Origin: a virus
Taxonomy: Duplodnaviria > Caudoviricetes
Reading direction: 5' to 3' (one strand)
DNA: 64,000 bases
Virus record (IMG/VR): IMGVR_UViG_3300020048_000137
Span: 546-64,545 of that record
Each line of letters opens with the position of its first letter. Within the stretch, counting starts at the first letter, position 1. The position numbers and the translations under genes were made by a program. Shown here piece by piece: positions 10,101 through 28,733 of this stretch. The notes beneath the pieces are model-generated. The model had not been told where the DNA came from and made no database searches. It saw only the letters and a program-made list of their open reading frames with translations.

Positions 10101-10103
10101 CCG

Positions 10104-10660: not shown

Positions 10661-10664
10661 ACTT

Positions 10665-12017: not shown

Positions 12018-12289
12018 GGCTCCAACCCCGCAAAGAATTTCTTCCCGTCCTCGAAGTTGTCGATCCAAGTCGCCTTGAACCCTGCTTCGCGGAGATCCTT
12101 GATCCATTTGTTCTGCAACGCCGTCGGCAGTTTCTCTGGTGCCTTGTATTCCACGAACACGGTGACGCCGCGACGGAGATACATCCTGTCCGGCTTGCCC
12201 CGGTCGTGTGTGCCGGACAGCTTCAGTGACATCCACCCCAGTTTTTTCGCATGGGCGGTAACAGCTTTTTCAATGGCTGATTCTCTCAT
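12014..12289 (-). CDS. VRR-NUC domain nuclease
   Basis: MRESAIE...GKPDR...FVEYKAP...LQNKW motifs. Confidence 0.88.
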   Translation of the reverse strand: MRESAIEKAVTAHAKKLGWMSLKLSGTHDRGKPDRMYLRRGVTVFVEYKAPEKLPTALQNKWIKDLREAGFKATWIDNFEDGKKFFAGLEP

Positions 12290-12597
12290 TCTTCGCCCCC
12301 CTTCACAGGTTCCTTCTGCGGAGCCAGTAACCCCATGATCGCATCATCAATCGCACTGCGTTCCCTCTTCTGGATCGCTACGATGAGGTCGTAGCACACG
12401 CCACGGCTGATTGCGGTGAGAGGTGAACGGTTCGAGTTCAGGGCGCGGAACACCTCGATCATCACGGCACGCTTCAGGTCGTCGGTGGACGGATCGGTCT
12501 TGATCCACTGGCGCAGGACGTTTCGGTTCTTGATGTGTCCGAAGATTCGGAGGGTGTCGTCTCGGGAGACTTTCGGTTGGTCGGGGAATATGTTCAT
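12286..12597 (-). CDS. Hypothetical protein
   Basis: Coupled ORF in replication operon. Confidence 0.6.
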   Translation of the reverse strand: MNIFPDQPKVSRDDTLRIFGHIKNRNVLRQWIKTDPSTDDLKRAVMIEVFRALNSNRSPLTAISRGVCYDLIVAIQKRERSAIDDAIMGLLAPQKEPVKGGEE

Positions 12598-12602
12598 GGC
12601 GG

Positions 12603-14726
12603 TTAGGATTTACAGTAGCTTCGCACCACGTCTGTTGTAGCGTCGAGAGGGAATCCCTTGAACCAGTCTGGGACGGTGCAAAGGAGGGCGTTAAACTCCT
12701 CGGGGTTGCCGTGTTCCGGCGCAAGGCATTGGTCGTGGACGACGAAGAACGGTGCGTATCCAACGGTTTCTGTTTGTAGCACACCTTCGACAAGGAGGTC
12801 AACGCCCGTAGCCTGGGTAGCGGATTGCAGACAGTCGCCCCCGTACGTCTTCACCCTGCCATAGTTCACACCCTTAGTGTGGCCGTAGAACGAAAGCTCC
12901 CATGTGTGGAAGTGGCTTCCGTAGCGTAAGCCCGGATTGATGAACGCATCGCCGAACTGGAAATCCTTTCGGATCTGAGCCTCGGTAAGATGCCCAAATG
13001 CCCGCTCCCACCTGTTCAGTGTTCCGTCTTCGTTGTCCACCCGAACCATGGTGATCGGGTCTTTCGCAGGGTAGGGGAGGATGATCTTCCTGCCAGACGG
13101 CAGCCGGACAGCCATGCGCGGGAAGGGGGCTTTCTTGGTGTATCCGTAGGCGACATACTTTCCGGCTTCCTGCCACTGTCCGGGGTTGTCGAGGGCGGCG
13201 GCGAAGGCGTCCGCGAACGTGCGCCATGCTTCAGGAAACTCGGGGTTCTTCTCGCGAATCAGTGACACGACCTTGGCGCACTTGTCCATCGACCATGTTT
13301 TTCCGGTGGCAGTAAACACGGCGTTCTTGCCGCCGCCAAACTGGGTGGCGAGAACCAATGTCTTCCCGTGGTCGCGGGTCAGTGTTTCGCCGAACATGGC
13401 TCCCACGTCGCGGGCGGTGTTGGAATACAGGTCGCCGTCCGTTCCGAACGTGTCGAGGATGCGCTGGCACCCGATAAGCTGGGGGAGAATCTTAGCCTCC
13501 ACGCTCGCGAAGTCCGCGTCTAAAATGTTAAGGTCGTCAAAGCGCACGAAATAGCGGGCGAGGCAGGCGATTACCTTGTAGGGGTTTCCATAGACGCCCT
13601 CAATGTAGGAGAGCGGCACGCCGCTGCGGACATCCTGATACGCGGCCTCGATGTCGTCGCGGAGATCCTTCTCGGGTTTCTTCATGTTCTGCCATTGGGG
13701 TGTTTTGCACGACCATCTTCCGGTCTTCTGCGCCCCGCACCACATGAACGACCCGCGTATCCGCCCGTCGGACATCACGCACTGGAGCATGGAGGGGATC
13801 TTCTTGACGGCGGCGTATGACAGTTCGGCCATGAGGCGCAGCGCCCGCTTGGCCTCGGGGGTCATTGATTCACTCTTTCCGTAAAGCACACGGGATTCCT
13901 TGTTGAGCTTCACCCCTTTGTAGCCGCGCTCCTGCAACCACTTCAGACACTTCGCGTTCTGCGTGGGGGCAAGTCCTGTAATGGTCTTGAACTCCGTGGT
14001 CAGGATGACGCGGTATTCATCGACGAGACTGTTCGCCGCGAGCAGGGCGGGGACATCCACGGGGACACCCCTGTCGTTCATCCGTGCGTCAAGCAGGAAA
14101 GAGTCAAGTTGCCGCCCGGTCAGGGTGAACGGCTCCATCGTTTTTGCCACGAGCATCTCGGTCTCCACGTCCCGGACGCAGTAGCCCACGAACTTCTGGA
14201 ACGCGGTGGCGTCGGTATGCTTCTCCCCGCCCACAGTGTAGGTGTCGGTCGTGTCATGGAACCCACGGAACACGCCGTCCTTCTGCGGTATCGAGAACTT
14301 CCCGATCAGCGGCCCGCCCATCTTATCCTTCTGGATGGGCAGCTTCAGGAACTCGGCGGCACGGGCAAGAGACGGCGGAAGTCCGGCAGCGCGGCACACG
14401 GCGGCGGTGCATCGCATCCGGTTGACATCCGGCACGGGGAAGCCCCACTGGCGGGTCGCCACATACTTCAGGATGGCATACTCGAACTGTGAATTGAAAG
14501 CGTGGATCTCCCAGCTTTCGGTAATCGCCTGATACAAAATGTTGAGAGCGTCGTTCGTGGCTACGCGCTGCCGTGCGTCCCATGTGAGGATAGCACCCCC
14601 GTTGTGCGACACCGCCACAATGAGTATCTCCGTGCTTGCGTCCTCGGCGTAGCGGAACGCTCCCACACTCCTGATGTCGGCGCTGCTGCGGGTCTCGAAG
14701 TCCAGATTGATGCGGTTCATGCTCAC
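12603..14726 (-). CDS. Family A DNA polymerase with 3'-5' exonuclease
   Basis: Exo I LDFET; motif A DADFASVEAK; motif B RDHGKTLVLATQFG; motif C VHDQ. Confidence 0.92.
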   Translation of the reverse strand: MSMNRINLDFETRSSADIRSVGAFRYAEDASTEILIVAVSHNGGAILTWDARQRVATNDALNILYQAITESWEIHAFNSQFEYAILKYVATRQWGFPVPDVNRMRCTAAVCRAAGLPPSLARAAEFLKLPIQKDKMGGPLIGKFSIPQKDGVFRGFHDTTDTYTVGGEKHTDATAFQKFVGYCVRDVETEMLVAKTMEPFTLTGRQLDSFLLDARMNDRGVPVDVPALLAANSLVDEYRVILTTEFKTITGLAPTQNAKCLKWLQERGYKGVKLNKESRVLYGKSESMTPEAKRALRLMAELSYAAVKKIPSMLQCVMSDGRIRGSFMWCGAQKTGRWSCKTPQWQNMKKPEKDLRDDIEAAYQDVRSGVPLSYIEGVYGNPYKVIACLARYFVRFDDLNILDADFASVEAKILPQLIGCQRILDTFGTDGDLYSNTARDVGAMFGETLTRDHGKTLVLATQFGGGKNAVFTATGKTWSMDKCAKVVSLIREKNPEFPEAWRTFADAFAAALDNPGQWQEAGKYVAYGYTKKAPFPRMAVRLPSGRKIILPYPAKDPITMVRVDNEDGTLNRWERAFGHLTEAQIRKDFQFGDAFINPGLRYGSHFHTWELSFYGHTKGVNYGRVKTYGGDCLQSATQATGVDLLVEGVLQTETVGYAPFFVVHDQCLAPEHGNPEEFNALLCTVPDWFKGFPLDATTDVVRSYCKS

Positions 14727-14788: not shown

Positions 14789-15343
14789 TTAAATGTCGTC
14801 GTCCTCGTCCTCCAGTGATGGCATGACATCCGCTGCGCGAGGTGCCGATCCGCCGAACGGTTCGTCGTCCTTCACGAACTGCACGATCTCAAGCCCACAG
14901 CAGACCTTGCCCCATGTCGGCGACCAGTACACCGAGATGAGGAAATTACACCAGCATCCGGCATACGGTTTCCCATCGGTTTCGTGTAGCGGGGTGCGAC
15001 CGTCACGGTCAACAATCTGCGGGCGACCCTGCGACTCGTTGCGGTTTGCGCTGATGACCCAGAAACCCTTGGAGTTCTCGTCGCCGTCCTCACCGTCGCC
15101 GTCCTTGATAAACAGGTCTGCCGCTTTGGGCATCTTGCCCTTCAGGTGCGTCTTGACAATGCGTTCAAGTTCGGCGTCGAACTGCCCCTTGGTTTTGGTG
15201 TCGGACTTCGGAAGCATGATCTGGCATCCGTAGCGGGGTTTGTTGGCGGGGTTGTTCTTGTAAGGAACCGGGCGATACAGCTTTGGGTAGCCGAGGCGGG
15301 ATTTGGGGGTAAGAATTTGACCCTCTTTCAGTTGTGTACTCAT
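14789..15343 (-). CDS. ssDNA-binding protein, DUF2815-like
   Basis: RLGYPKLY, PYAGCWCN, GLEIVQFVKDDEPFGG, acidic tail; typical DUF2800-DUF2815-PolA order. Confidence 0.85.
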   Translation of the reverse strand: MSTQLKEGQILTPKSRLGYPKLYRPVPYKNNPANKPRYGCQIMLPKSDTKTKGQFDAELERIVKTHLKGKMPKAADLFIKDGDGEDGDENSKGFWVISANRNESQGRPQIVDRDGRTPLHETDGKPYAGCWCNFLISVYWSPTWGKVCCGLEIVQFVKDDEPFGGSAPRAADVMPSLEDEDDDI

Positions 15344-15420: not shown

Positions 15421-15633
15421 TCAGTTGTGGAACGTGACCACGCTATCGTTCGGAAATGCTGCGCTGCACATGCACTCTTTGAAATTTGCAGCTTGCAATG
15501 AGTCTAGGTTAAAGGTTTCCGATTTCCCAGCCTCGACTTGAATCATCACAGGGGTTGCCCCATTAGCATTTCCAAGCTCAGCATAGACGCCATTAGCCTG
15601 CGGTGCTGTCCAAGTAATTGTTTGCGTGTTCAT
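15421..15633 (-). CDS. Small hypothetical protein (AT-richer insertion)
   Basis: 70-aa ORF overlapping upstream stop, followed by a hairpin at ~15385-15415. Confidence 0.5.
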   Translation of the reverse strand: MNTQTITWTAPQANGVYAELGNANGATPVMIQVEAGKSETFNLDSLQAANFKECMCSAAFPNDSVVTFHN

Positions 15634-17240
15634 ACCTCGTAGTCCCCCTCGTTCGGCATTATCTCACCCGGCGTCGGCAATGCGGGTCGCTTGTCCTCGG
15701 CAGGCACCAGCACGGGGCGTCCCTCGCTCCGTGAGACGAGAGCCTCGAACCTGTTCCGCGTGCGGGCGTTCTTGAGCTTCTCCTTGAGCGCGGCCTCAAT
15801 CTGAGCGGGGGTCTTGAGCTTGATGGTACAACGCTCGTCTTGTTTAAGACCTTGACGACGTGCGAAACCCTCGGCCTCGTCCTCGTTCGCCCATGTCCTG
15901 TTGCCCGGACGACCTTGCACATACTTAAACCCGAGTCGGGTGAGTGTGTCCACGTCGAGGTGGGCGAGGTAGTCCTCCACGTCACCAAGCCACTTTTCAA
16001 TCCTTGTGCGGTTCTTCAGCGCGGCGGCGAGGAACTCCAGCTTCAGGGTCTCCCCGTCCTTTGCGACAAGCTCGTCGATGACGATCTCCATGTCGAGAAC
16101 CTCGGCGGTCATGTCCGGCATGACGGCGAGCATGTCGGTGTGGCCTGATGTGTTGTGGGCGTGGCGGACTCCGCAGAATGCTTTCGCACGGCACCAGCGG
16201 CAGCTTCCGCCGTCGCCGTCCTGCGGGACGAACTCAGCGTGGGGTGCCGAATACTCGTGGATGAAACCGACGACCTCGTCAGGTGACACATTGACACCTT
16301 CACTCAGATCCTCCCTGCGAATAATCTCGACAGCCTGTGTGGCAACTTTCGCTTTCTCTTCAATCTCCGCGCAGAACTTCCGGAACTCTGAGAGCGGTAG
16401 CACCCAAGGGTCGTCGTCCTCGGCCATGTGGTGCCGGGGCTGGACGACCTTGATGTCGATGACCGTGTCGTCGGTGAAGTCGTAAATGTCCTCCAGATGT
16501 TTGATGAGGGAGTAGGCGTAGATCGCAAGCTGGGTGTTCCCCTCGCTCGTGACGAGGACTCCGGCACCGTGCTTGTAATCGCGGATCACGACTCGCTCGT
16601 CCATGATAACTGCGAAGTCGCAAGTTCCGGTGCTGTCAGATTGGTAGAACAGCGGGCATTGAACCTCCACCTCATACCTCACGCCATTGGGGACGAGGGC
16701 GAGGCAGTGTGCCACGTATTCACCGATGGATTCCCGCATCTCAGCAGGGACTTCGTCGAGGGTTTTCTTCTTCAGGAGAACGTCGGCTGCGTGGTCGTGG
16801 GCAACGGTGCCCTCATGGGAGTAGATCGACGACGTGTCCTCAGGGATCAGATGCTTGTTCGCTTCGCAGTATGCCAGTGCGGCGGTGCAGGTCGCCCAGG
16901 TTTTAGAGTGCGACGGGGCAAGACGTGCGTGAGTGTTGTGACTGCCGGAGGTTCCAGCCTCGGGTTTGTCTAACGACTCGTCGCGGACAATGTCACCTAC
17001 GTAGGTGGCATCAGTCTCGTCCGAGTAATCGGTATCCGGCACGATCCGCACCCCGTCACGCCTCACCTCGGCTCCCGCCTCGATGGAATTCTGGAGCATG
17101 GTGTCAAATATCTCGCGGGGATGGGTCAGGGTCATGCCGTTGTAGATGCACTTCGCGGTGGCCTTGGTCAGCGTCGTGATAACAAGGGGCTTGAAACCTT
17201 CGCGGATCAGGCTGTCGTTCTCTTTAGGCTCGTATTTCAT
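15630..17240 (-). CDS. PD-(D/E)XK exonuclease, DUF2800/Cas4-like, with N-terminal extension
   Basis: HARLAPSHSKTW, EGTVAH, GTCDFAV, IRDYKHG, TQLAIYA, CRWC. Confidence 0.85.
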   Translation of the reverse strand: MKYEPKENDSLIREGFKPLVITTLTKATAKCIYNGMTLTHPREIFDTMLQNSIEAGAEVRRDGVRIVPDTDYSDETDATYVGDIVRDESLDKPEAGTSGSHNTHARLAPSHSKTWATCTAALAYCEANKHLIPEDTSSIYSHEGTVAHDHAADVLLKKKTLDEVPAEMRESIGEYVAHCLALVPNGVRYEVEVQCPLFYQSDSTGTCDFAVIMDERVVIRDYKHGAGVLVTSEGNTQLAIYAYSLIKHLEDIYDFTDDTVIDIKVVQPRHHMAEDDDPWVLPLSEFRKFCAEIEEKAKVATQAVEIIRREDLSEGVNVSPDEVVGFIHEYSAPHAEFVPQDGDGGSCRWCRAKAFCGVRHAHNTSGHTDMLAVMPDMTAEVLDMEIVIDELVAKDGETLKLEFLAAALKNRTRIEKWLGDVEDYLAHLDVDTLTRLGFKYVQGRPGNRTWANEDEAEGFARRQGLKQDERCTIKLKTPAQIEAALKEKLKNARTRNRFEALVSRSEGRPVLVPAEDKRPALPTPGEIMPNEGDYEV

Positions 17241-17525
17241 GGTTTCATTGTGGCGGTTCACAAGTATTTCAATTTCTGTGGGAGGAATGCAACGTCTGCG
17301 ATCATACGCCCCGTGTAAAGATTGTGATCTGTTAACCATGCGATCTGTGAAGGGTGGTAACGATTTGACGGCGGACGACTCCGACAGATAGATCCGCTAC
17401 ATTTTATTGTCCTATTCTGCTCGGGAATATAAGTAATCGTAGTCTTCATGCTGTTAATATGTATATGGTTATCGGTGTAATCACAAAAAGAATTATTGCC
17501 GCTAGTGTGTCTTGGATTATAGCTC

Positions 17526-17834
17526 TCATTTAGCAAGTGTTTCGGGTGGCCACGCGGCGATGATGATGTCGATTGTTGCGGCGTTGCCTGTCATATCAAA
17601 CCGCAGTTTGTTTATCGCAGCAATCGTCGAACGCCATCCTGCCTCGGCGGTTCCGACACAGGCGGCGAAATAGTTGGTAACTTCAGGCGTGTCGTCAAAG
17701 TCCACCCAAGCAGAAAAATTGACACTCATGTATTTACCCATTCTCTCTATGTCTTTTATTCTTGCTTTGTCAGCGAGTGCTAGGAGTTCATTGCAGCGGG
17801 CTATGATTGCGTCTAAGTGTTCGATGGTTGTCAT
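17526..17834 (-). CDS. Hypothetical protein
   Basis: MTTIEHLDAIIARC..., coupled to upstream gene. Confidence 0.55.
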   Translation of the reverse strand: MTTIEHLDAIIARCNELLALADKARIKDIERMGKYMSVNFSAWVDFDDTPEVTNYFAACVGTAEAGWRSTIAAINKLRFDMTGNAATIDIIIAAWPPETLAK

Positions 17835-18058
17835 GGTTTCCAAAGGTTCTCCCATTGATGATCCTTTACCCACATATATTGCCCATCGTGGAACTTCCAC
17901 CCGCAAGCCTCCGCAATCGCGATTCGTTGTGCTTCTGGGGTCATTTTTGCCTTGTCCATAAGTGCTTGCTTGTTTTCTGCGTCAATTTCTTGTTGCAGCT
18001 TGTATTCTTTCGCGAGTCCCATGTCGTCGCAGTCGGGGTATCCGTTTGTGGTTGTCAT
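17831..18058 (-). CDS. Hypothetical protein
   Basis: MTTTNGYPD...QRIAIAEACGW; start moved to ATG 18058. Confidence 0.55.
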   Translation of the reverse strand: MTTTNGYPDCDDMGLAKEYKLQQEIDAENKQALMDKAKMTPEAQRIAIAEACGWKFHDGQYMWVKDHQWENLWKP

Positions 18059-18099
18059 TTTGTTCGGTTTTGTTCTTTGTTTGTAATGTATTGATGCTA

Positions 18100-18164
18100 A
18101 GAGACTTAGCGAGCGCACGTTTGTAGTGAAATCTTCCTATGGTTGTCATAACAACTTGTTGTGC
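18100..18164 (+). repeat. Array-start half-site, copy 1
   Basis: 54/61 identical to 26958-27018; ends in core GTT. Confidence 0.85.
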
Positions 18165-18457
18165 CAATGAATCTCGCATTCACGTTGCGCGAGTTCCTTT
18201 GACATGTTTGGACGTGGAGCGTTGTTCGGAATATACTCGTATCCTCCGCCGTTGGCAGGAGAGACAACAGCAACCCACCCTGAGTCTCCCGCCGATTTAA
18301 TGACCGAGTAAGTGGTTCCGCAGGGTGTTTTTGCAACCCACATCGGGTTAGCTGTCGCGCAGTCAGTCCATTCTAAAGAAGATGCACAACAAGCCGCAGC
18401 ACGCGGACTTCGAGGAAGTTGGCTCGCAAGATTGGGGGTGTCGGAGATTTCAGTCAT
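18146..18457 (-). CDS. Cassette-borne hypothetical protein starting inside attC
   Basis: ATG in attC loop, reads through inverse core (RAAACCAS), stops at TGA within the half-site. Confidence 0.65.
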   Translation of the reverse strand: MTEISDTPNLASQLPRSPRAAACCASSLEWTDCATANPMWVAKTPCGTTYSVIKSAGDSGWVAVVSPANGGGYEYIPNNAPRPNMSKELAQRECEIHWHNKLL

Positions 18458-18514
18458 TTCGTTTTTTTTTGTTGTTGGTTACGGCCTCGCAGCCCGTGTG
18501 CTTAGACGTTAGCC
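18384..18514 (+). repeat. attC-like site
   Basis: GCACAACAAG...CAGCACGCGG / CCCGTGTGCT...GACGTTAGCC imperfect inverted repeat. Confidence 0.8.
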
Positions 18515-18548
18515 GGAGAACGGAAGACCCACTCTCCGGCTTGGTTGG

Positions 18549-18737
18549 TTATTCCGTCACGGGTGGTTCCGTCTTCCATCCGCCAGCTGGTGGCATGGCG
18601 ACGAGCGCGTTGCGGCTTTCAATGCGGGCGCACGCCGAAGCGATTGCCATGTAGTCGGCCACGTCTTCGGGGTTGAGATTGCCGACGGACATTCCGTATG
18701 CCAACTCCCGTATCTCTTTCAGTTGTTCTGGTGTCAT
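18549..18737 (-). CDS. Cassette-borne hypothetical protein
   Basis: MTPEQLKEIRELAYGMSV... Confidence 0.55.
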   Translation of the reverse strand: MTPEQLKEIRELAYGMSVGNLNPEDVADYMAIASACARIESRNALVAMPPAGGWKTEPPVTE

Positions 18738-18770
18738 ATGTTTATTTGGTTTTTCCGACGCACCCCCAAC

Positions 18771-18857
18771 GGCTAACAAGACGGTGATGGGAACGGCGAG
18801 AAAGTCTATTGTCGGGGCGGAGTCTTGGGGTCGCCGTCCCATACCTCTGCGTTAGGT
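18771..18857 (+). repeat. attC-like site
   Basis: GGCTAACAAG...GATGGGAACGGCGA / TCGCCGTCCCATAC...GCGTTAGGT. Confidence 0.85.
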
Positions 18858-19010
18858 GGAGAGAATCATGTGAACGATTACCGCGCCTGCGAACGCACAC
18901 ATGAGGTTCATGCCGCCAGGAACCTTCATCACTCTTGGTGACAAGGCTCCGATAAATTCGGGAATCATCCAGCCCGTGCAGGCTCCCGCAATGCAATATA
19001 GTATGGTCAT
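18852..19010 (-). CDS. Cassette-borne 52-aa membrane peptide (not in ORF track)
   Basis: MTILYCIAGACTGWMIPEFIG...HMILST; stop TAA is the TTA of the core site. Confidence 0.55.
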   Translation of the reverse strand: MTILYCIAGACTGWMIPEFIGALSPRVMKVPGGMNLMCAFAGAVIVHMILST

Positions 19011-19045
19011 TTTTTCTTTTGGTTCGGTGTTTGAGATAGGTTCGC

Positions 19046-19135
19046 GCCTAACAAGCGGATCGTGGCGACGGCGAGCAAGCCGTCAGATGTGGTTGGGAGT
19101 CTGATTCCGCCGCCGCCACATCCCTTGCGTTAGCG
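19046..19135 (+). repeat. attC-like site
   Basis: GCCTAACAAG...GATCGTGGCGACGGCG / CGCCGCCGCCACATC...GCGTTAGCG. Confidence 0.85.
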
Positions 19136-19525
19136 AAACCTCGCTTCGGTGATGTATAGGCCATCGGAAAACCTCCCTTTGCGGTATCGCACTAGAACTT
19201 TCTGCCCCGTTTGAGCTTCGTCGTGAGTGCGCTCTGAGACTGTTACACTGTCGGAAAGCTCACCCACCCGCATTACTACAGCCCAGCTTTCTGGATGGTA
19301 GATGAACTGAGTCCACCCGCCTCCGTTGCCGTTGCTGTGATAGATAGTCTGCACCCATGCGGGGCTGTAGTTGTGCCCGCAGACTTCGGCGGTGCCTTCA
19401 CGGTCATCAATGAACCATGAGTCAGCGGCACGGAATACACCCCAGCAAACCAGCCAGAGAACGACAGCCACACAAGCGGCCATCAAGAGAGCTAATAGCT
19501 TTTCGAGCCAATCGCCTTTGAGCAT
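19130..19525 (-). CDS. Cassette-borne membrane-anchored protein
   Basis: N-terminal hydrophobic helix then beta-rich (OB-like) domain; stop within core site. Confidence 0.6.
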   Translation of the reverse strand: MLKGDWLEKLLALLMAACVAVVLWLVCWGVFRAADSWFIDDREGTAEVCGHNYSPAWVQTIYHSNGNGGGWTQFIYHPESWAVVMRVGELSDSVTVSERTHDEAQTGQKVLVRYRKGRFSDGLYITEARFR

Positions 19526-19546
19526 GTCGAGAAAATCGGAAATCAT

Positions 19547-19637
19547 CGCTAACAAGAAAAATGCAGACAACCGCCGAGGGGCGTCTGCTGTGTTGATTTA
19601 CGCCCTCGGCGGCGGTGCCTGATTTTTGACGTTCGCA
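19547..19637 (+). repeat. attC-like site
   Basis: CGCTAACAAG...CAGACAACCGCCGAGGGGCGT / ACGCCCTCGGCGGCGGTGCCTG...GACGTTCGCA. Confidence 0.85.
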
Positions 19638-19885
19638 GGACAAATAATCCATTCTTCGCGCTCGCCAGTCAGCGGCACTCGATAGACGGTCACATCAATC
19701 TTGCATTCGTATTGGTCGCGGACGAGTTTCCCAGCCTGTTTCTTGGACTTCGCGGCAACATATTTCCACCATCCTCCCTTGAATGTCTCGTCGGACACGT
19801 CATAGACCAGTGCCTTATACAGCCTCAAAACCTGCGAACAAGGCGTCGCTGATAACGGGGACTCGCCCCGAGTTGAAGTTTTCAT
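19598..19885 (-). CDS. Cassette-borne hypothetical protein starting and ending inside attC sites
   Basis: MKTSTRGESPLSATPCSQ... to ...CPANVKNQAPPPRA. Confidence 0.6.
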   Translation of the reverse strand: MKTSTRGESPLSATPCSQVLRLYKALVYDVSDETFKGGWWKYVAAKSKKQAGKLVRDQYECKIDVTVYRVPLTGEREEWIICPANVKNQAPPPRA

Positions 19886-19953
19886 TTTGGTTTGGTAGTT
19901 GTGGGAGCAGTCAGCGGGCGCTCCCGCCCCCGTATCAGGACTCATCGTTCTCA
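19833..19953 (+). repeat. attC-like site
   Basis: TGCGAACAAG...CTGATAACGGGG / CCCCGTATCAG...ATCGTTCTCA with one extrahelical base. Confidence 0.85.
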
Positions 19954-20141
19954 CCATTCCGCTCATACGCCTTGGAGTCCAGCGGCAGATTGCAGGCGGC
20001 GGCGGAGAGTTCTCGCGTCAGGCTTTCAATCTCCACTTTTGCGCGTTTGAGCATATCGCCCTCCCGGCTGTTCGGGAATGCGTAGCTGCCGTCAGTTTGA
20101 GCGTAGGCGTGATGGATGTTTTCGAGATATACAGATTTCAT
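19935..20141 (-). CDS. Cassette-borne hypothetical protein
   Basis: MKSVYLENIHH...; C-terminus encoded by attC arm. Confidence 0.55.
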   Translation of the reverse strand: MKSVYLENIHHAYAQTDGSYAFPNSREGDMLKRAKVEIESLTRELSAAACNLPLDSKAYERNGENDES

Positions 20142-20173
20142 TGAAATCGGAGCTTGAGATGGTTTCGGAAGAG

Positions 20174-20264
20174 TGAGAACCAGTCAGCGATGGCGACGCC
20201 GAGCAGCGTCCCCATTTAGGTTGGGAGTCCTTTCCCGTCGTCGCGCCTCACATCAGCGTTAGCA
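20174..20264 (+). repeat. attC-like site (last of array 1)
   Basis: TGAGAAC...GATGGCGACG / CGTCGCGCCTCACATC...GCGTTAGCA; central part shared with 30270-30325. Confidence 0.8.
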
Positions 20265-20482
20265 ATATCATGGACAACGAAGGCGCGTTCACTTGTTTCG
20301 GGGTCGTAGGTTCGGATCACGCCAAACCCTTTTTTCAGAGCTTGGTCGATCAGAGCTTCCACTGCGTATTTGAGGCCTCGGATGCTTTCGGCTTGGCAGA
20401 TAGCGTCCTCGGTCAATACAAAGCGCATGGGGAGCTTCGCGAATGGATCAGGCTGGGATATTACGGAATCGTTTGGTTTCAT
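20216..20482 (-). CDS. Hypothetical protein ending inside attC
   Basis: C-terminus ANADVRRDDGKGLPT is attC-encoded. Confidence 0.55.
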   Translation of the reverse strand: MKPNDSVISQPDPFAKLPMRFVLTEDAICQAESIRGLKYAVEALIDQALKKGFGVIRTYDPETSERAFVVHDIANADVRRDDGKGLPT

Positions 20483-20524
20483 CAGAGTTTTCAGGTTGTT
20501 CGGTTTCGCCCATTTGGTGCTGTA

Positions 20525-21007
20525 TCACCACCGTAAAACGGTAGCGTAAAATTCTGAAACCTGGTCGTCGGTAAGTTCCTTAATCACGCTCACCCCGTAT
20601 TTCGCACGGAGGGCGTCGAAGGTGGCCTTCACCGTGCCTTCGGTGTCGGCGAGGAGCTTGCCCTTGATGACCTCCTTCAGCGCGTTGCGAAGTTCGGCGA
20701 CGGGGAGGTCGGGGACTTCGGGTGCAGCTTCGACCGTGCCTCCGCAGTCTTCTTCGGCGGGATGGATGTCGAGGTCGGAGCCGCCGTTCTCTTCGGGGGT
20801 TTCCTCAGCGACGGGTGCAAGGCACTCGGGTTCCGGCTCGGGTTCGACGACGGCGAGCAGTGCGGCTTTCGCGGCACGCTTCTTCGGCGTGGTCGGAACC
20901 AGTGTGTCGGCGGCGGTGACGGCTCCGACGCTCAGGATCTCCCGGAGCGCGGCGGTGTTTTCTTTGAGAGCTTGGGTAAGCTCGGCGAGTTGTTGTTCAA
21001 TGGTCAT
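20525..21007 (-). CDS. Phage protein typical of DUF2800/DUF2815/PolA clusters
   Basis: N-terminal coiled coil, acidic linker, C-terminal helical domain (AKYGVSVIKEL). Confidence 0.6.
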   Translation of the reverse strand: MTIEQQLAELTQALKENTAALREILSVGAVTAADTLVPTTPKKRAAKAALLAVVEPEPEPECLAPVAEETPEENGGSDLDIHPAEEDCGGTVEAAPEVPDLPVAELRNALKEVIKGKLLADTEGTVKATFDALRAKYGVSVIKELTDDQVSEFYATVLRW

Positions 21008-21278
21008 ACGGTGTGTTTCTGGTTAAGTGCCGCCGCGATTGCGAAGGCGGTGAGAGTGGCTGCGATGAGGATGAGTTTCATGTCAGCCTCTTTCCTTGAT
21101 GAGGGTGACAAGAAACCATGTGAAGCAGAGGATGGCGATCCCTTGCACGGCAGGGTGGAACTCGGTAATTACGGTGGCGATCATGGTCGGTCTGAGTTAC
21201 GAAAACAATATGCGGTAATTTGTCAAAATGTCGAGAAGTTTTTTCGGAAATCGTTGGAGGGCTTATGGGGTAAGGGAT

Positions 21279-22046
21279 TCAGATGTCGATGGAGTCCACG
21301 TATGCGCGGTGAATCCGCCCCTGACAGATGGCAAAATACTCCTCGTCGCGCTCGATGCCGATGAAGCGACGACCCGTGTTCATGCAGGCTACGCCCGTCG
21401 TCCCGCTGCCCATCGTGTTGTCGAGGACGAGTTCTTCGGGGTTGGTGTAGGTCTTGGTGAGATACTCCATCAGGGCGACGGGTTTCGCTGTTGGATGGAT
21501 ATTCAGACCGTCGGTTGCAAATTCCAGGACGGTATTAGGGTATCCGGTCTGCTTCTGGACATAAGCTCCGTGGGAAGGACTTTTCCTGAAATGCACATCC
21601 GAATTGCTCTTGCCTTTGTAATCCCGTTTCTCGTTGATTTCGGTCAGACCTTGTGGGAAGTAAGGCATTCTGTTCTCACTCAGATTGGCGTGGTTTGTGG
21701 TGGCCGAACTGAAAACGCACACGTCCTCGTGCTTCTTCATCGGCTTGTTTTTAGCGTGGGCAAAATTCGTCGGGCGGTTCTTCACCCACACCCAGCAATA
21801 CTTGAACATGCTGAGATTCGACGCGATCAGGACACTCGTGAAAGGCTGCGATGCCGTCAGCACAATCGCCGCGTTCTTCTTCGTCACCCGCCGATACGCT
21901 TCCCATAGCGGCTCAAACGGGATGACTGTGTCCCACTTGCACGCAGTCGTCCCATACGGCAGATCGCAGAGGATCATGTCGATGCTCCCGTCGGGAATCT
22001 CTTTCATCCGTTCCAACGTGTCTCCTAGTTTCAGTTCGTAGTTCAT
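21279..22046 (-). CDS. DNA N6-adenine/N4-cytosine methyltransferase (beta class)
   Basis: Catalytic DLPY precedes SAM motif DNTMGSGTTG; HPTAKP. Confidence 0.92.
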   Translation of the reverse strand: MNYELKLGDTLERMKEIPDGSIDMILCDLPYGTTACKWDTVIPFEPLWEAYRRVTKKNAAIVLTASQPFTSVLIASNLSMFKYCWVWVKNRPTNFAHAKNKPMKKHEDVCVFSSATTNHANLSENRMPYFPQGLTEINEKRDYKGKSNSDVHFRKSPSHGAYVQKQTGYPNTVLEFATDGLNIHPTAKPVALMEYLTKTYTNPEELVLDNTMGSGTTGVACMNTGRRFIGIERDEEYFAICQGRIHRAYVDSIDI

Positions 22047-24589
22047 AAATCAGGCATCCTCTCTTCCAAAAGTTCAATCGGGTCATCAAGTCCATCCATA
22101 AACCCGTCGATGCTCACATACACCCGAGTCCGCTCACCGCCGACCTCGAACACCTTTGCGTTCTCGTAAGCACGGTATCCCAAAATGTGCAGGTAATGTG
22201 AAGCCCGTGCATTGTTCCGCCCAAGCAGCGCGGTCTCCCGCTCGACCTGTGCGTAGTGGATCACGTCCTTCCCGATCAGGGGATACGCGGGGTCGGCGAT
22301 GAGGTCTTCGATCTGGATGAGCATGGGGTTCTTGCCAGCATCGACAAGCTCATGGCGGAACACGGTGTCGGGGGCGTGGCCGTTCGGATTGAATGTTTCG
22401 CTGATCTGATATGTCAGGTAGAACTGGCGGAACGCACCGGGGTTATCCCTTATCAGGTCGTGAATCCGTGTGCAGACGCCCGTGTTCAGGAACGCGACGA
22501 CCTGCGACTTCGATTGCAAGCGGCTTTTCAGGATCATGTATCTGCGGTCGCTGTCCTCCAGCACCAGTGCGTCGTGTTTATTTGATGTCACGAAGTAGTT
22601 CGTGACGTTCACGATGTTCCGCAGGTCGCGGAACTTCTGCTGGACGGGGATGCGGTCGTTCGCGATGGCGTCCTTCAAACTGTTGTTGACTTCGTGACGG
22701 TTCGACCCCGCCGAGAAAAGCTCGTCGATGTAATTGAGATGTACACCTTCGCGCCACTCGTCGAACCCGCTGCCCGTCATCTTCGACCCTGTGATGATCC
22801 TGAAATTGGCTTCACCGATGGCGGCTTGCACGGTGTCCATGAGGGTTCCCTTGCCGCAGCCCTGCCCACCTTGGAGGAACGGCGACCACCGGATCTTGTG
22901 ACCCGGACGCTGGACGCAGTAGGCGAGCCAGTCGAGGACGTGGCGAACGTGGTTCTCGTCGGCGAGGTTCGCCCGTAGCAGGGCTAGGATGAGGTTGCCC
23001 GCCCGCTCGGCACCGATGGGGGAAGCGGACGGCACGGAGGACTTCAGGTAGGTGTTCACGAACCACTTGCCGTCCCGCTCAAAGTAAATGTCGTCGCCCT
23101 TTTTCTCCTTGTCCCCGTCGAACGCTTCGCGGGGATCATACACCGAGTCGTCCACGATCTTGATCCCTGCGGTGAACAGGGCATACGAGGATGCGGAGAT
23201 CGGGACATCGCCGTCCGGGGTGACGAGGTTCCGCCCGAACGTGTGGTTGAAAGCATCGGTGGTGTATTCCGCCCCAGTGACAGTGTTCCTGAAACGGTCA
23301 CGCGGACCTATGAAGCAGAACGGCAGCATCCAGGATGGTTTCTCGGCCTTCGCGCCGTCGTGCTTCTCCTGCCTGCGGAGACGTTTCATGTCCTTGAGGA
23401 TGGATGTCTTGCTGACCGACTTCCCGGATCGCTTGACCGCTTTCACGATCATGTCGGCCATCATCTCCTCGTCGGTGTCGGACGGTATGGGGAGCGCGGC
23501 GATCTTGCGGATGCCTTCCCGCAGCACGGTGTCCCCGTCCGTCGCCTCGCACCACTGCGAGAAAGCCGCGACGATTCCGTTAGTGAGTTTCTCGTGCGTC
23601 CACCCGGACTGCATGGCGTGGTGGAACAGGGTGCGGAGGGTGATCGGGTTCCGGCCTTCGGGGTAGGGCTTGAAGCTGCGCCACTTCAGGAGACACTCGT
23701 CCCTGTCCTTGTACTTCGCACCCTGCGACGACCATTCGTGGAACATCTCGAACGCTTCGCGGGCGATGTCCTCCTCGGTGAACTGGTGGCGGAGGGCTGC
23801 GGCGATCTCATACCACTCTCGGTAGCCGCAGTCAGCCGAGATGGCGTAGAGAGGTTCCCGGATGTCGTCGAGCGACATACCCGTTAAGGGTAGATTCAGG
23901 ATGCTGCCCTCCTTCATGTCACCCGCCTCGGGGGTGTAGGCATACCCGCTATCGTCCGGTGTAGGTGACTCGGTCGTCTCGGGCAGGGTCGTAGCGTCGA
24001 GCCGCTTCCCGTCGAGGCGGTCTGCGATCACGGCGTTGTAGTCCTCCCCCTGAAAGTGAAGGGGGCGGTATTGGGGCTGTGAGATGATGAGGGACTCGGG
24101 CTTGCCTTTGAAGGAAGCGGGGAGTCCGAGCAGCCCGATGACGTGCAGCACGGCACGCTTGAATAGCGCGGGTTCCACCGTTAGGCAGTCCACCATGATC
24201 TTGATGCGCGGCTCTGCGGGCGTATGCTTCGCTGTCGTCCATGCCACGAAGTTGTAGGGTGACAGGGCTTCGCGGATCGTGTCCGGCGAATTGAAAAAGT
24301 CGGCGGCTTCCGCACCGTCGAGGTCGATGATGATGAGGTTGAACCCCGTCGCACTTTCGTTCAGCCTTGCACACTCATCTTCTGGGTAAGTGGCAGCACC
24401 GAGCCACGCGCCGTCCTTCAGCTTGTCCCTGTCCGGGTGTGCAAGGAAGTCCCGACGCTTCATCGGGAACGCGACGGGAACGTGGACTTGCGACTGCACG
24501 AGATCCTTGAACGTCTCGGCGGCGAGGAGGCGGACGCGGCCACCTTGAACACTGCGACCACCAAAGAAGCGTGTGGGGGTGTCACTCAT
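22043..24589 (-). CDS. Primase-helicase (PriCT_2-like plus SF3/DUF5906-like ATPase)
   Basis: YREWYEIAAAL...WSSQGAKY; Walker A GGQGCGKGT; NYIDEL; DSDRRY. Confidence 0.88.
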   Translation of the reverse strand: MSDTPTRFFGGRSVQGGRVRLLAAETFKDLVQSQVHVPVAFPMKRRDFLAHPDRDKLKDGAWLGAATYPEDECARLNESATGFNLIIIDLDGAEAADFFNSPDTIREALSPYNFVAWTTAKHTPAEPRIKIMVDCLTVEPALFKRAVLHVIGLLGLPASFKGKPESLIISQPQYRPLHFQGEDYNAVIADRLDGKRLDATTLPETTESPTPDDSGYAYTPEAGDMKEGSILNLPLTGMSLDDIREPLYAISADCGYREWYEIAAALRHQFTEEDIAREAFEMFHEWSSQGAKYKDRDECLLKWRSFKPYPEGRNPITLRTLFHHAMQSGWTHEKLTNGIVAAFSQWCEATDGDTVLREGIRKIAALPIPSDTDEEMMADMIVKAVKRSGKSVSKTSILKDMKRLRRQEKHDGAKAEKPSWMLPFCFIGPRDRFRNTVTGAEYTTDAFNHTFGRNLVTPDGDVPISASSYALFTAGIKIVDDSVYDPREAFDGDKEKKGDDIYFERDGKWFVNTYLKSSVPSASPIGAERAGNLILALLRANLADENHVRHVLDWLAYCVQRPGHKIRWSPFLQGGQGCGKGTLMDTVQAAIGEANFRIITGSKMTGSGFDEWREGVHLNYIDELFSAGSNRHEVNNSLKDAIANDRIPVQQKFRDLRNIVNVTNYFVTSNKHDALVLEDSDRRYMILKSRLQSKSQVVAFLNTGVCTRIHDLIRDNPGAFRQFYLTYQISETFNPNGHAPDTVFRHELVDAGKNPMLIQIEDLIADPAYPLIGKDVIHYAQVERETALLGRNNARASHYLHILGYRAYENAKVFEVGGERTRVYVSIDGFMDGLDDPIELLEERMPDL

Positions 24590-26399
24590 GCGGGATTACC
24601 TCCATGCAGATTTCGATAAACATGGCTGCGAGCGGGGCTACGATGGAATTCCCGTAACCCTTCAAGCGCATCACCCTTGCTTCCGACGTTTCGTTGGCAT
24701 AGCCCGGTGCGCCCGGATCGCAGCTTGGCACCACTCCACGGGGTAGCCCTGCAACCAACGGGGCAGAGCCGCGTTGAGTACGCCGGGCTTTGCCGTCGCG
24801 GCAGGGGATGAGGTCAAAGTCTGACCAGAATCCAGTCCGTCGGGGTCGGTGAGCTTCGCCTGATGACCGAGCATCTGCTGCATCTTCGACCCCGGCAGAC
24901 CCGCTGCGTCGTCGTTCGCTGACGGCGTGAGCCATCCGCTGATCTGCTTCGGCTGAGTCAGTCCAACTTGTCGCCCCAGCTGGTCGAGCCTGTTGCGGAT
25001 GCTGCCGTCCGGGTTCACTCCCGTCTCCGACATTCCCGGCGAGTCCTTGTGATCCCTCGCTCCGGGTGTCGCCCATCCAGCGAGCGTAAAGCACTCCGTC
25101 GCGCTCGTCATAATCGTACCCATCTTGGATGGGGCCGGGACATTCGCAGTCCTCGGCGTAGGTGAGTCCGCAGATGGAGCATTCGTCTCCGGGTTCATCG
25201 TCGCCCCCTCCGAGGCAGTCAGCGGCGAAGGATACGCGTTTCCAACCATCACTGATGCCTGTTCCCCCAAATTCCCCGGCACATACTGGCGACCCATCGA
25301 CTCTCGGTAAGCTATCCGCTTCTCCATCCCCTCTTTCGTGCGAGTCATATTCGTGGTTGTGGGGGTCATCCATCCGCAGATTGGCATCGCAGCCTGCGCC
25401 TCGTGAGTCAGACCCACTTGGGCAAGCCGTCCCGTGATCTTGTCGTAAGCCCTCTGCCCCGGTGTCCACGGGTTGCCCTCCGAGTCCACAAGTCTGTCGA
25501 GGCTGACTCCCGGCTCCGACGTTGCGGGGCTGCGCCATCCGGTGATCGGTGGTTCGGTCAGATGTTGCGCTGTGTGCGCCAGTTGCGATGAATGGTTCGG
25601 TCTCGCCATCCACCGCGCCGAGTATGCTTGTGGATCGCTGCTCCTGGATGCGTTCACGTCCGCGCAGTTCGGTGTCGGCCATCCTGCTATTGGTTGACTC
25701 GCAGCTTCCGCTGCCAGATTCATCTGACCGCCGCCCTTGCGTTTCGCGAAGTGAACCTTCTCGCAGTTGTCCGTGGTCTTCGGAGTGTTCGGAGTGTTCG
25801 GAGTGTTCGGAGTGTTCGGAGTGTTCCACCCCACGATATGCGACCCAGTAGAGCCGCTGCCGGATGTGGGGTGCCCCGATGACGATTCGCTCCCAAGTCT
25901 CCTGATCTCCACGCACAAGCCGTCCTTCGCCGTCCTCCCCCGCGCACGGAGCGCATAGATCGAGGGCTGTGACGGGATAGCCCATTGCTTGCAAGTCCAG
26001 ACATACTCCGGGGAACCATTTTTCCCTTGCAATCTTGCTGCTAACTTGTTCGCCAATAAGGACTGGAGGTCGGCACTCGCTGACAAGGCGTTGAAAGACA
26101 GGCCAGAGGTGTCGCTCGTCGTCGGTTCCTGCTTGCTTTCCGGCGGATGAGAAGGGCTGACATGGGAGGCTGGCTGTCCACACGGGTCGGTCGTCCGGCC
26201 ATCCTGCGAGCTTGAGGGCGAGACTCCAGCCTGATACTCCAGCGAACCAATGTGCCTGCGTAAAACCGCGCAGATCGGATGGTTCGACTTCAGTAATGCT
26301 TCGATCATCGACATGTCCGTAAGGTATTTGTTTGTCCGCGATAAGCTGGCGTACCCACGCCGCTGCCGTTGGACAAAATTCGTTGTAATATGATGCCAT
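24582..26399 (-). CDS. C5-cytosine DNA methyltransferase, large (alpha) chain
   Basis: Motif I FAGVSG, IV LPCQPFS, VI GEQV, VIII HIRQRLYW, X LKGYGNSIV; no motif IX in this frame. Confidence 0.85.
   Translation of the reverse strand: MASYYNEFCPTAAAWVRQLIADKQIPYGHVDDRSITEVEPSDLRGFTQAHWFAGVSGWSLALKLAGWPDDRPVWTASLPCQPFSSAGKQAGTDDERHLWPVFQRLVSECRPPVLIGEQVSSKIAREKWFPGVCLDLQAMGYPVTALDLCAPCAGEDGEGRLVRGDQETWERIVIGAPHIRQRLYWVAYRGVEHSEHSEHSEHSEHSEDHGQLREGSLRETQGRRSDESGSGSCESTNSRMADTELRGRERIQEQRSTSILGAVDGETEPFIATGAHSATSDRTTDHRMAQPRNVGAGSQPRQTCGLGGQPVDTGAEGLRQDHGTACPSGSDSRGAGCDANLRMDDPHNHEYDSHERGDGEADSLPRVDGSPVCAGEFGGTGISDGWKRVSFAADCLGGGDDEPGDECSICGLTYAEDCECPGPIQDGYDYDERDGVLYARWMGDTRSEGSQGLAGNVGDGSEPGRQHPQQARPAGATSWTDSAEADQRMAHAVSERRRSGSAGVEDAADARSSGEAHRPRRTGFWSDFDLIPCRDGKARRTQRGSAPLVAGLPRGVVPSCDPGAPGYANETSEARVMRLKGYGNSIVAPLAAMFIEICMEVIPHE
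24671..26314 (-). CDS. Nested alternative-frame ORF, putative MTase beta chain (547 aa)
   Basis: Open over 1.6 kb in +1 frame; repeated W-x-[TS]-P modules; motif IX-like LNAALPRWLQGYPVEW. Confidence 0.72.
   Translation of the reverse strand: MSMIEALLKSNHPICAVLRRHIGSLEYQAGVSPSSSQDGRTTDPCGQPASHVSPSHPPESKQEPTTSDTSGLSFNALSASADLQSLLANKLAARLQGKNGSPEYVWTCKQWAIPSQPSIYALRARGRTAKDGLCVEIRRLGSESSSGHPTSGSGSTGSHIVGWNTPNTPNTPNTPNTPKTTDNCEKVHFAKRKGGGQMNLAAEAASQPIAGWPTPNCADVNASRSSDPQAYSARWMARPNHSSQLAHTAQHLTEPPITGWRSPATSEPGVSLDRLVDSEGNPWTPGQRAYDKITGRLAQVGLTHEAQAAMPICGWMTPTTTNMTRTKEGMEKRIAYRESMGRQYVPGNLGEQASVMVGNAYPSPLTASEGATMNPETNAPSADSPTPRTANVPAPSKMGTIMTSATECFTLAGWATPGARDHKDSPGMSETGVNPDGSIRNRLDQLGRQVGLTQPKQISGWLTPSANDDAAGLPGSKMQQMLGHQAKLTDPDGLDSGQTLTSSPAATAKPGVLNAALPRWLQGYPVEWCQAAIRAHRAMPTKRRKQG
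25779..25823 (+). repeat. Tandem repeat (TTCGGAGTG)x5
   Basis: Exact 9-bp unit; encodes (HSE)5 in one frame and NTP repeats in the other. Confidence 0.95.
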
Positions 26400-26405
26400 A
26401 TAGGT

Positions 26406-26606
26406 TCACGCTCCCTCCCCAGTGAGGTAGTCCTCTAACATCTGAGCGTCATTGAAAGACATTTTCTCAGTCTCACCTTTCAGGACGCGGCGCAGACGGT
26501 AATAGCCTATGCCTGTGAGGGTGGACAAAAGGGAAACTGCCACTCCAGTTTTTTCAATATGAGAGCGGGTGCGGTTAATGATATTCTCAGTCGGATCGTC
26601 AGTCAT
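26406..26606 (-). CDS. Small HTH (XRE/Cro-like) regulator
   Basis: AVSLLSTLTGIGYYRLRRVLKGE...MSFNDAQMLEDYL. Confidence 0.6.
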   Translation of the reverse strand: MTDDPTENIINRTRSHIEKTGVAVSLLSTLTGIGYYRLRRVLKGETEKMSFNDAQMLEDYLTGEGA

Positions 26607-27007
26607 GGTGCGGGAGACAGGGTGGTTGTTTGGTGTTTTGGTGTCAATGGCTTTTTTGCAAATTTCTTTCCGAGTAGAACCGGACGGACTTTTTCCAGTA
26701 TCCACGCCATGCCATGAGGCTTCGACTTCCACCCATCTGGCGTGCGTAAGCGGAAATTATTGATGCGATCTCCGCGCTCAATCACCCAAGAGGTGACTTT
26801 ACCAGATGCAAAGTCGTGGTATCGGATCGAGCCTAGCGCGGAACCTTCCCGCAGCGGCGGATTCATTTCCAATTCGCGCAAAACTTCCGGCGTAATCTCT
26901 GCCAGTCGCCGATCACGCTGCACCTGCTGTGATCGCTTTCCCATAGCACTCATTCTTAGAGACTTAGCGAGCGCACGTTTGCGGGAGAATCTTCCCATGG
27001 TTGTCAT
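26603..27007 (-). CDS. Hypothetical protein starting in array-2 half-site
   Basis: MTTMGRFSRKRALAKSL...; ATG overlaps TGA of upstream antisense ORF. Confidence 0.6.
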   Translation of the reverse strand: MTTMGRFSRKRALAKSLRMSAMGKRSQQVQRDRRLAEITPEVLRELEMNPPLREGSALGSIRYHDFASGKVTSWVIERGDRINNFRLRTPDGWKSKPHGMAWILEKVRPVLLGKKFAKKPLTPKHQTTTLSPAP

Positions 27008-27022
27008 AATAACTTGTTCGGC
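26958..27022 (+). repeat. Array-start half-site, copy 2
   Basis: Colinear copy of 18100-18164. Confidence 0.85.
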
Positions 27023-27067
27023 AGAGAAATTTTTTGTTTCCACAAGACATAGATAAGGATCGCGGCC

Positions 27068-27917: not shown

Positions 27918-27945
27918 AAGAAATTTTTCATAATACAAAATCGAG

Positions 27946-28577: not shown

Positions 28578-28588
28578 TAATGAAGAGT

Positions 28589-28713: not shown

Positions 28714-28733
28714 ATGAAAGAAGAGTTCCCATT

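Follow-up and report, generated by a model that had tools for sequence, protein, structure and literature searches.

The Vibrio cholerae superintegron, with its V. cholerae repeats (VCRs), is a sedentary chromosomal integron with a homogeneous family of attC sites. Bacterial chromosomal integrons also hold some inverted cassettes, for example toxin-antitoxin cassettes with their own promoters, and these are a minority. Phages carry attC sites too. Qi, Rajabal, Ghaly, Tetu and Gillings (2023, PMC9892861) described 17 clusters of attC sites lacking integron integrases (CALINs) in phages, each with at least 2 attC sites. They showed that the integrase IntI1 recombined 5 of 6 attC sites from virulent phages, at G/TTRRRY, and the cassettes of two named virulent phages were in the usual orientation. 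Here we describe a cluster of six attC sites, array 1, in a phage genome from IMG/VR, record IMGVR_UViG_3300020048_000137. The window, by which we mean the whole stretch of DNA analysed, is 64,000 of the 64,545 bases of that record, which carries direct terminal repeats and is scored by CheckV as 100% complete. Array 1 is window 18158-20264 and lies within a minus-strand block of early and replication genes. We believe it is a genuine integrase-less array of integron-type cassettes, a CALIN, in a complete phage, with its cargo inverted and with a host integron integrase (IntI) proposed as the enzyme. We put the probability of this reading at about 0.8.

The six sites and their chained cores

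An attC site is an imperfect palindrome of 57-141 nt with an inverse core xxxxAAC (R'') and a core GTTxxxx (R') at its ends. The coordinates below run from R'' to R' on the plus strand and come from reading the sequence and aligning the sites.

18158-18164, plus strand, lone first core GTTGTGC
18384-18514, plus strand, attC E, 131 nt
18771-18857, plus strand, attC A, 87 nt
19046-19135, plus strand, attC B, 90 nt
19547-19637, plus strand, attC C, 91 nt
19833-19953, plus strand, attC F, 121 nt
20174-20264, plus strand, attC D, 91 nt

All six have the ends and lengths of attC sites (87-131 nt, AAC on the left and GTT on the right). They also share xxxxAAC followed by AAG (CAG in D) and a closing C-GTTxxxx. 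The strongest argument comes from how the cores are paired. When each R'' is compared with the reverse complement of the R' that precedes it, the mismatches along the array are 0, 0, 1 (a G-T wobble), 0, 0 and 0, while R'' and R' of the same site differ at 3, 2, 2, 2, 1 and 2 positions. This is what the original prediction had claimed: five exact pairs and one wobble between the opening and closing cores of a cassette, with 7-mers that differ between cassettes. The observed total of core matches is reached by 1 of the 720 permutations of partners, and the analytic chance of five exact 4-nt core matches is about 7e-12. The complementarity is confined to the 7-mer, with none beyond it. Chained cores of this kind are the footprint of circular cassettes cut at G/TT.

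The folding of the sites is less uniform. Folded as DNA, A, B and C give bottom-strand hairpins that are bulged and run from end to end, with z scores from -3.2 to -4.4 and 0 of 200 shuffles as good. The bottom strand of F also folds end to end, at z -1.9 with 10 of 200 shuffles as good. Site E, at 131 nt, has a long loop and a weak fold, yet it scores 28 bits with the attC covariance model described below. The claim of six hairpins thus stands for lengths and ends at every site, and for folding at four of them: the hairpins of A, B, C and F hold up well, that of E is weak, and D is a degenerate site that keeps both cores. In A, B, C and F, single-base bulges lie on the 5' arm of the plus strand, which is the 3' arm of the bottom strand, as in the characterised attC sites aadA7 and VCR; extrahelical bases are expected on the R''-L'' arm.

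The six sites lie within 2.1 kb, and the 64,545-bp genome has no match to TIGR02249 or PF00589, as in a CALIN; there is no intI, so this is not a complete integron. Rfam has no family for the array-1 sites, its sole match being a chance microRNA at E 0.05. Two hairpin scanners that we made by hand were noisy or missed known sites, and were dropped for the covariance model. The loop motif GGTTGGGAGTC...CCG.CG had six matches in a viral contig database, all of them coding sequence and none of them attC.

Kinship with bacterial integrons

A second array in the same genome, array 2, begins with three near-identical attC sites (27794-29344). We derived a pattern of their attC family from these three and scanned it against 185,579 species genomes, one per prokaryote species. 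The scan returned 50 stretches, where we estimate about 2 would be expected by chance, and 48 of them are in Verrucomicrobiota (Luteolibacter, Haloferula, Akkermansiaceae, Oceaniferula, Prosthecobacter and others). In most of these matches the span from the AAC end to the GTT end is 117 nt, as it is in phage array 2. Four of the five pattern-matching genomes tested have an IntI above the curated cut-off of TIGR02249. The alignment of the 50 bacterial sites has visible compensatory variation.

We built a covariance model, R1, from the 50 bacterial sites alone. An unfiltered search of the entire window with R1 gave 11 sites at E<1e-3, whose ends are identical to the ones called by hand. The hits of arrays 1 and 2 are all on the plus strand, and the best unrelated match has 10.8 bits. 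In array 1 the scores are 48.3 bits for F (E 3.7e-9), 34.6 for A (E 3.3e-6), 30.3 for C and 28.0 for E (E 8.9e-5), all four at E<1e-4. As judged from alignment and covariance, the array-1 sites are homologues of attC sites in real bacterial integrons.

The bacterial loci also settle which strand is which. The complete genome of Oceaniferula spumae has intI (394 bits) on the minus strand and at least 20 R1 attC hits, all on the plus strand. These hits begin about 1.9 kb upstream of intI, and there are none on its other side. The intI loci L063 and L065 have a divergent layout of intI and attC like that of O. spumae. The forward direction of R1 is therefore the canonical top strand of attC, and the plus strand of the phage is the attC top strand in arrays 1 and 2. 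We regard both the homology and this polarity as established.

Two further observations concern the bacterial family itself. Chromosomal integrons of Verrucomicrobiota share a highly conserved attC family, about 117 nt from AAC to GTT, across several orders (L008-L057, and L088, which is O. spumae chromosome 2797000-2812000). The assembly of Luteolibacter pohnpeiensis is broken by small contigs made of attC-family repeats.

The cassettes and their reversed genes

Cutting at G/TT divides array 1 into six cassettes, each closed by the attC site of the same letter.

18159-18508, cassette E: core (G)TTGTGC; gene 18146-18457, minus strand, 103 aa; attC E 18384-18514; cores GTTGTGC/GCACAAC exactly complementary
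18509-18851, cassette A: gene 18549-18737, minus strand, 62 aa; attC A 18771-18857, bottom-strand fold z -3.6; cores GTTAGCC/GGCTAAC exact
18852-19129, cassette B: gene 18852-19010, minus strand, 52-aa hydrophobic peptide; attC B 19046-19135, a clean bulged hairpin, z -3.2; cores GTTAGGT/GCCTAAC with one G-T wobble
19130-19631, cassette C: gene 19130-19546, minus strand, 138 aa; attC C 19547-19637, fold z -4.4; cores GTTAGCG/CGCTAAC exact
19632-19947, cassette F: gene 19598-19885, minus strand, 95 aa, start in the attC loop; attC F 19833-19953, related to attC S5 of array 2; cores GTTCGCA/TGCGAAC exact
19948-20258, cassette D: gene 19935-20141, minus strand, 68 aa; degenerate attC D 20174-20264; cores GTTCTCA/TGAGAAC exact

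In the typical layout the cargo gene is on the attC top strand with attC 3' of it. Array 1 does not have this layout. We scored codon usage as log-odds trained on the long genes of the phage, for which in-frame windows average 0.34 and off-frame windows -0.42. The minus-strand open reading frames (ORFs) of A, B, C, F and D score from 0.12 to 0.38 per codon and that of E, which starts inside its attC loop, is neutral at near 0; the plus-strand alternatives in array 1 are negative, every one. By codon usage the cargo is thus on the bottom strand in five of the six cassettes, and the prediction that all the genes lie there stands for these five and is left neutral for E. Homology confirms the bottom-strand placement for cassette C. 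In ten bacterial arrays of the attC family, by comparison, 64 intervals between adjacent sites have their longest ORF on the top strand and 10 have it on the bottom strand, and 4 are tied. The longest-ORF measure is noisy for the phage arrays because genes extend deep into the attC sites there, so we used codon log-odds and the gene calls of the source for them instead.

The reversed genes are closely fitted to the sites. In the sense of the mRNA each array-1 attC lies just upstream of its own gene. Genes B and C have their TAA stop inside the CTAAC core. Four genes cross a core (at window 18158, 19631, 19947 and 20258), and in all four the AAC of the core is an in-frame Asn codon. The array-1 genes run in the same direction as the flanking phage genes.

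What the genes do is harder to say. Pfam and PHROGs assign no function to any array-1 cargo, and homologue searches with the proteins of cassettes E and F found only those proteins themselves. A tblastn comparison of the array ORFs with the bacterial loci gave matches to translated attC sequence only. The protein of cassette C has 12 homologues at 48-93% identity, and they are in phage-like contigs only, some of which have no attC. Its cluster in the Atlas has 951 members, most often viral where the taxon is known. The predicted fold is a long N-terminal (transmembrane) helix with a beta-barrel, at a predicted local distance difference test score (pLDDT) of 86.8. Foldseek found nothing for this model at E<=0.001, and its likeness to DUF2500 or to an oligonucleotide/oligosaccharide-binding (OB) fold is weak. 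The original prediction argued that the phage packages its own accessory genes as mobile cassettes, and the phage-like codons, the homologues of C on phage-like contigs and the core-to-core unit described next all support it.

Movement of cassette C

Cassette C has turned up outside this genome. Contig L073, a viral-like contig from a Joint Genome Institute (JGI) metagenome, is similar to the window only over 19129-19637, at 90.6% identity. The identity runs from the distal core of attC C through the attC, GTTAGCG, the start codon and the whole gene, and stops at CGCTAAC, with flanks on both sides that are unrelated to the window. The shared unit is therefore the cargo with the attC 5' of the gene (in the mRNA sense), as bottom-strand cutting at AA/C predicts. 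Run X4, which is from another study and another year, has Logan contigs that span 19128-19635, and each piece shows 1-3 differences from the window (about 99% identity). These contigs run into unlike sequence on both sides, and almost nothing else of 17000-31500 is present. The original prediction proposed that related genomes be compared for breakpoints exactly at GTT, and for cassette C the breaks do fall at core sites in both L073 and X4. Since the homology ends at core sites and the flanks differ, cassette C moved as a canonical cassette unit. From these sequence comparisons we conclude that it has moved between genomes, which is demonstrated for C only.

More distant relatives fill out the picture. 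L066 and L068 are viral-like, with terminase, portal and capsid genes, and in both a cassette C gene 70% identical in DNA lies between GTTAGCG and CGCTAAC. L068 has 18 R1 matches, 12 of them at E<=0.01. All 18 run antisense to the called genes, and 10 of the 17 adjacent core pairs are exact; L066 has five R1 matches. These two arrays mean that the reversed design is not peculiar to the phage genome studied here. L074 keeps the CGCTAAC breakpoint and has a decayed cassette C attC with two compensatory stem-pair changes. Still more distant homologues, in L070 and L071, are in phage-like contigs without any attC.

The enzyme

If cassettes move, something must move them. The 64,545-bp genome has no PF00589, TIGR02249 or PF01797, and PF00239 appears only below threshold, at 12.9 bits. 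Three bacterial IntI proteins used in tblastn found nothing in the window or in the examined parts of L066, L068, L073 and L074. We regard the absence of a recombinase from the phage as established, and with none encoded by the phage the likely enzyme is an IntI that the host provides in trans; we infer that it is what moves the cassettes.

A separate viral record has something different. L081 (IMGVR_UViG_3300034082_004705, a linear viral record, 65% complete) has, in the region 9652-13857, an IntI-like tyrosine recombinase flanked by two very strong attC sites of 119-122 bits. Over about 280 aa the recombinase is 27-31% identical to three Verrucomicrobial IntI proteins. L081 may belong to a phage that has acquired an integron integrase, or the region may be a junction between prophage and host.

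The ends of the array and the other two arrays

Array 1 begins at a short element that occurs twice in the genome, and its end has a counterpart in array 2. The features are as follows.

18094-18160, plus strand, 67-nt candidate entry element, ending ...AACTTG/TT at the crossover of the first cassette
20216-20482, minus strand, backbone gene whose reading frame passes the core and ends within the loop of attC D
27016-30350, plus strand, array 2, six attC sites: 27794-27917, 28589-28713, 29220-29344, 29648-29737, 30018-30116 and about 30253-30350
63431-63982, minus strand, array 3, two attC sites: 63896-63982 and 63431-63517, R1 scores 45.0 and 39.6 bits

The second copy of the 67-nt element, at 26952-27018, is 87% identical and heads array 2. 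Both copies end in ...AACTTGTT, and their identity stops exactly after GTT. The next bases are the openings of the first cassettes, GTGC in array 1 and CGGC in array 2. The cores next to the element pair with their own inverse cores, GCACAAC at 18384 and GCCGAAC at 27794. Neither copy has an attC on its left. The element has no match in the viral contigs, in the bacterial loci including the intI loci, or in the other phage loci. It is a candidate attI-like site or a candidate secondary insertion site, and attI-like by position only.

We removed the six cassettes in silico at G/TT. The backbone gene that begins at 20482 would then end in ...ANKLL-stop, and at the removal junction a TGA overlaps an ATG inside the element, which is an ordinary phage gene junction. 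On the side of the backbone gene there is no TGCTAAC partner core downstream, in the top-strand view. The degenerate sites at the ends of arrays 1 and 2 (20177-20246 and 30256-30325) are 87% identical over 70 nt. The backbone gene 20216-20482 and the ORF 30298-30675 are otherwise unrelated, and they have their last 9 residues in common (..RDDGKGLPT; regions 20216-20260 and 30295-30330), because both genes cross the core into a homologous degenerate attC that supplies the tail and the stop.

In array 2 the junction cores are all exact by reading of the sequence. R1 scores five of its sites at 72.9, 68.8, 58.1, 34.8 and 24.1 bits, and the first three are near-copies of the bacterial Verrucomicrobial family (58-73 bits). 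A plus-strand ORF scores as coding in the first cassette, and at 28714-29219 a minus-strand ORF outscores a long plus-strand ORF in codon usage. Codon scores thus suggest that gene polarity is mixed in array 2. In run X1 a low-depth Logan contig (depth 2.1 against 7-8) joins 28705 to 30109 within a CGTT common to two array-2 sites. The join skips 1403 nt and resembles an attC x attC deletion, and it is a hint only because its shorter side is 24 nt and lies in a repeated attC arm.

The cores of array 3, GTTCGCT/AGCGAAC, are complementary, and its sites are 18 nt from the end of the genome. The partner of its outer core would fall beyond the end of the window or of the terminal repeat. Together the cassette arrays occupy roughly 9% of the phage genome.

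The rest of the genome

The genes around array 1 are those of a phage replication region.

10665-12236, minus strand, SNF2 helicase
12603-14726, minus strand, family A DNA polymerase
14789-15343, minus strand, Enc34-type single-stranded DNA-binding protein
15630-17339, minus strand, DUF2800/PD-(D/E)XK protein, with small ORFs next
21279-22046, minus strand, N6/N4 methylase
22043-24589, minus strand, primase/VapE-like protein
24582-26399, minus strand, C5 methylase
31580-31925, minus strand, transfer-messenger RNA (tmRNA), a complete gene (Rfam RF00023, 120 bits; no call by ARAGORN)

A large terminase (56722-58587) and an exonuclease are recognisable elsewhere in the window. There is no close isolate phage: polymerase identity reaches about 30% at best, and the array has no DNA match. 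A search with the DUF2800 protein found a single distant viral relative only. Compared with loci in five Verrucomicrobial genomes, the phage tmRNA has 69-78% DNA similarity over 75-264 nt, which, as an uncontrolled comparison, we did not use as evidence about the host. A single ORF of 4006 residues spans 12 kb of the late region (42324-54344, plus strand). The C5 methylase ORF holds five tandem 9-nt repeats of the GTGTTCGGA type (25768-25830). At 31365-31405, the start of a minus-strand ORF, the 9-nt unit GGTGTTCAT occurs four times in tandem; on the minus strand these repeats are repeated ATG-AAC-ACC codons.

A model for the array

Each of the six units consists, in order, of (G)TTxxxx, cargo, xxxxAAC, attC body and G, with the cargo inverted so that the attC bottom strand is the mRNA-sense strand. 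We propose that cassettes leave and join the array at G/TT of attC sites folded from the bottom strand, most likely through the integron integrase that the host supplies in trans when it is infected. The 67-nt element at the head of arrays 1 and 2 is the probable point of entry for new cassettes. The cassettes are presumably expressed by read-through from flanking phage transcription. Phages of integron-bearing hosts could in this way swap accessory genes one cassette at a time.

A wider reading is that phages of integron-bearing bacteria keep a pool of reversed cassettes and entry sites of their own and use the integrase of the host to trade early accessory genes among phage genomes, with the reversal itself being functional. 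We hold this tentatively, and would rate it a little below an even bet. The recombinogenic bottom strand would then be the non-template strand, with attC serving as the 5' leader and start region, and AAC stays in frame wherever a gene crosses a core. The strand required by IntI could also become exposed when the early region is transcribed or replicated.

Weighing the explanations

Some of our own results weigh against a genuine cassette array worked by a host integrase. The bottom strands of E and D are not folded end to end at minimum free energy, so the check on bottom-strand folding that came with the original prediction favours A, B, C and F but not the other two. R1 gives B only 12.7 bits (E 0.18) and has no match at D. 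Moreover R1 was seeded through a pattern derived from array 2, which biases it toward that sub-family, and the matches to A, C, E and F are for this reason the informative ones. At 70% identity the cassette C gene of L066 and L068 adjoins different attC sites, so the link between gene and attC is not constant at that distance. Array 1 is invariant in the three runs that contain the phage, all of one aquatic study, which gives no sign of present activity in this array. The host is probably a member of the Verrucomicrobiales, an assignment based on attC-family similarity only.

It is conceivable that an unrecognised phage-encoded recombinase, or some other non-IntI enzyme, acts on attC-like hairpins and that the phage runs an analogue of the integron by itself. 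The genome encodes no integrase and yet has three arrays with at least 14 sites, and many of its ORFs have no family assignment. We think this unlikely. The sites are homologous in sequence and structure to bacterial attC sites that stand next to true IntI genes, and a genome that is 100% complete carries no signature of a tyrosine recombinase, a credible serine recombinase or a Y1 transposase. Somewhat less probable again is that the arrays are inert remnants of a chromosomal integron of the host, acquired by illegitimate recombination and immobile now. The degenerate site D, the poor fold of E, the unvarying array 1 in three samples with the phage and the decayed cassette C attC of L074 are all what relics might look like. 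The genes, on the other hand, are co-oriented with phage transcription and have phage-like codons, while host arrays are the opposite (64 top against 10 bottom). Of the six core pairs five match exactly, a copy of cassette C that is about 99% identical turns up in a different context in an unrelated study, and two arrays start at one type of element that ends exactly at GTT. The X1 contig that joins two array-2 sites in CGTT points the same way, weakly given its 24-nt side.

We give very little weight to the idea that the hairpins are ordinary regulatory structures, such as terminators or RNA-processing sites, or that the contig is an assembly chimera of phage and host. The hairpins do sit between small genes as terminators would, and the record is a metagenome assembly. 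No T-run follows the stems, though, and chained cores and homology breakpoints at the level of the cassette are unexpected for terminators. As for a chimera, independent Logan contigs from three runs bridge backbone and array (for example 17000-19874 in one piece), phage genes lie to either side of the arrays, and the genome carries direct terminal repeats. A CALIN with inverted cargo, worked by the integrase of the host, remains the explanation we favour.

Comparison with known systems

Published phage attC clusters have been limited to rare, small CALINs of the usual layout. The present finding points to a cassette economy on the phage side that runs on a host enzyme. It would add a mechanism to phage mosaicism, the exchange of single genes at defined sites. 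Opposite gene polarity within one attC family, in host and in phage, is a natural contrast for studying how cassettes are born and what polarity does. The attC family could also predict the hosts of uncultured phages. Full-text searches of the literature turned up no account of phage arrays whose cargo is systematically reversed, of arrays in Verrucomicrobial phages or of an entry element that is repeated.

Loot et al. (bioRxiv 10.1101/2022.09.11.507474) report that IntI can insert a cassette into the genome at non-classical sites (attG), using a bare GTT away from attI and attC. On that account, insertion at attG would explain how an array can start at a GTT in phage DNA without a left attC. 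One 67-nt sequence heads two arrays here, and this resembles a dedicated entry site more than a random GTT.

The inverted cassettes of bacterial chromosomes resemble array 1 in that the cargo is antisense to the attC top strand. In the phage array and in L068, by contrast, inversion is the rule, and the genes are tightly packed, with starts in attC loops and stops in cores. The integrons of Verrucomicrobia such as Oceaniferula spumae NT6N have their attC family in common with the phage (xxxxAAC AAGGCG ... GAC GTTxxxx, about 117 nt), and like the phage they have chained cores and small orphan cargo genes. The Verrucomicrobial arrays adjoin intI and have top-strand genes, whereas the phage arrays are without intI and have bottom-strand genes. 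The phage CALINs of PMC9892861 are like ours in being attC clusters in phage genomes without intI. The phage studied here differs from them in having three arrays with at least 14 sites, array-1 genes on the attC bottom strand, an entry element common to two arrays and one cassette that has moved between genomes. Clusters of attC sites in phages were already known; what is added here is the link to a host clade through the attC family, cassette C in three contexts and the common entry element.

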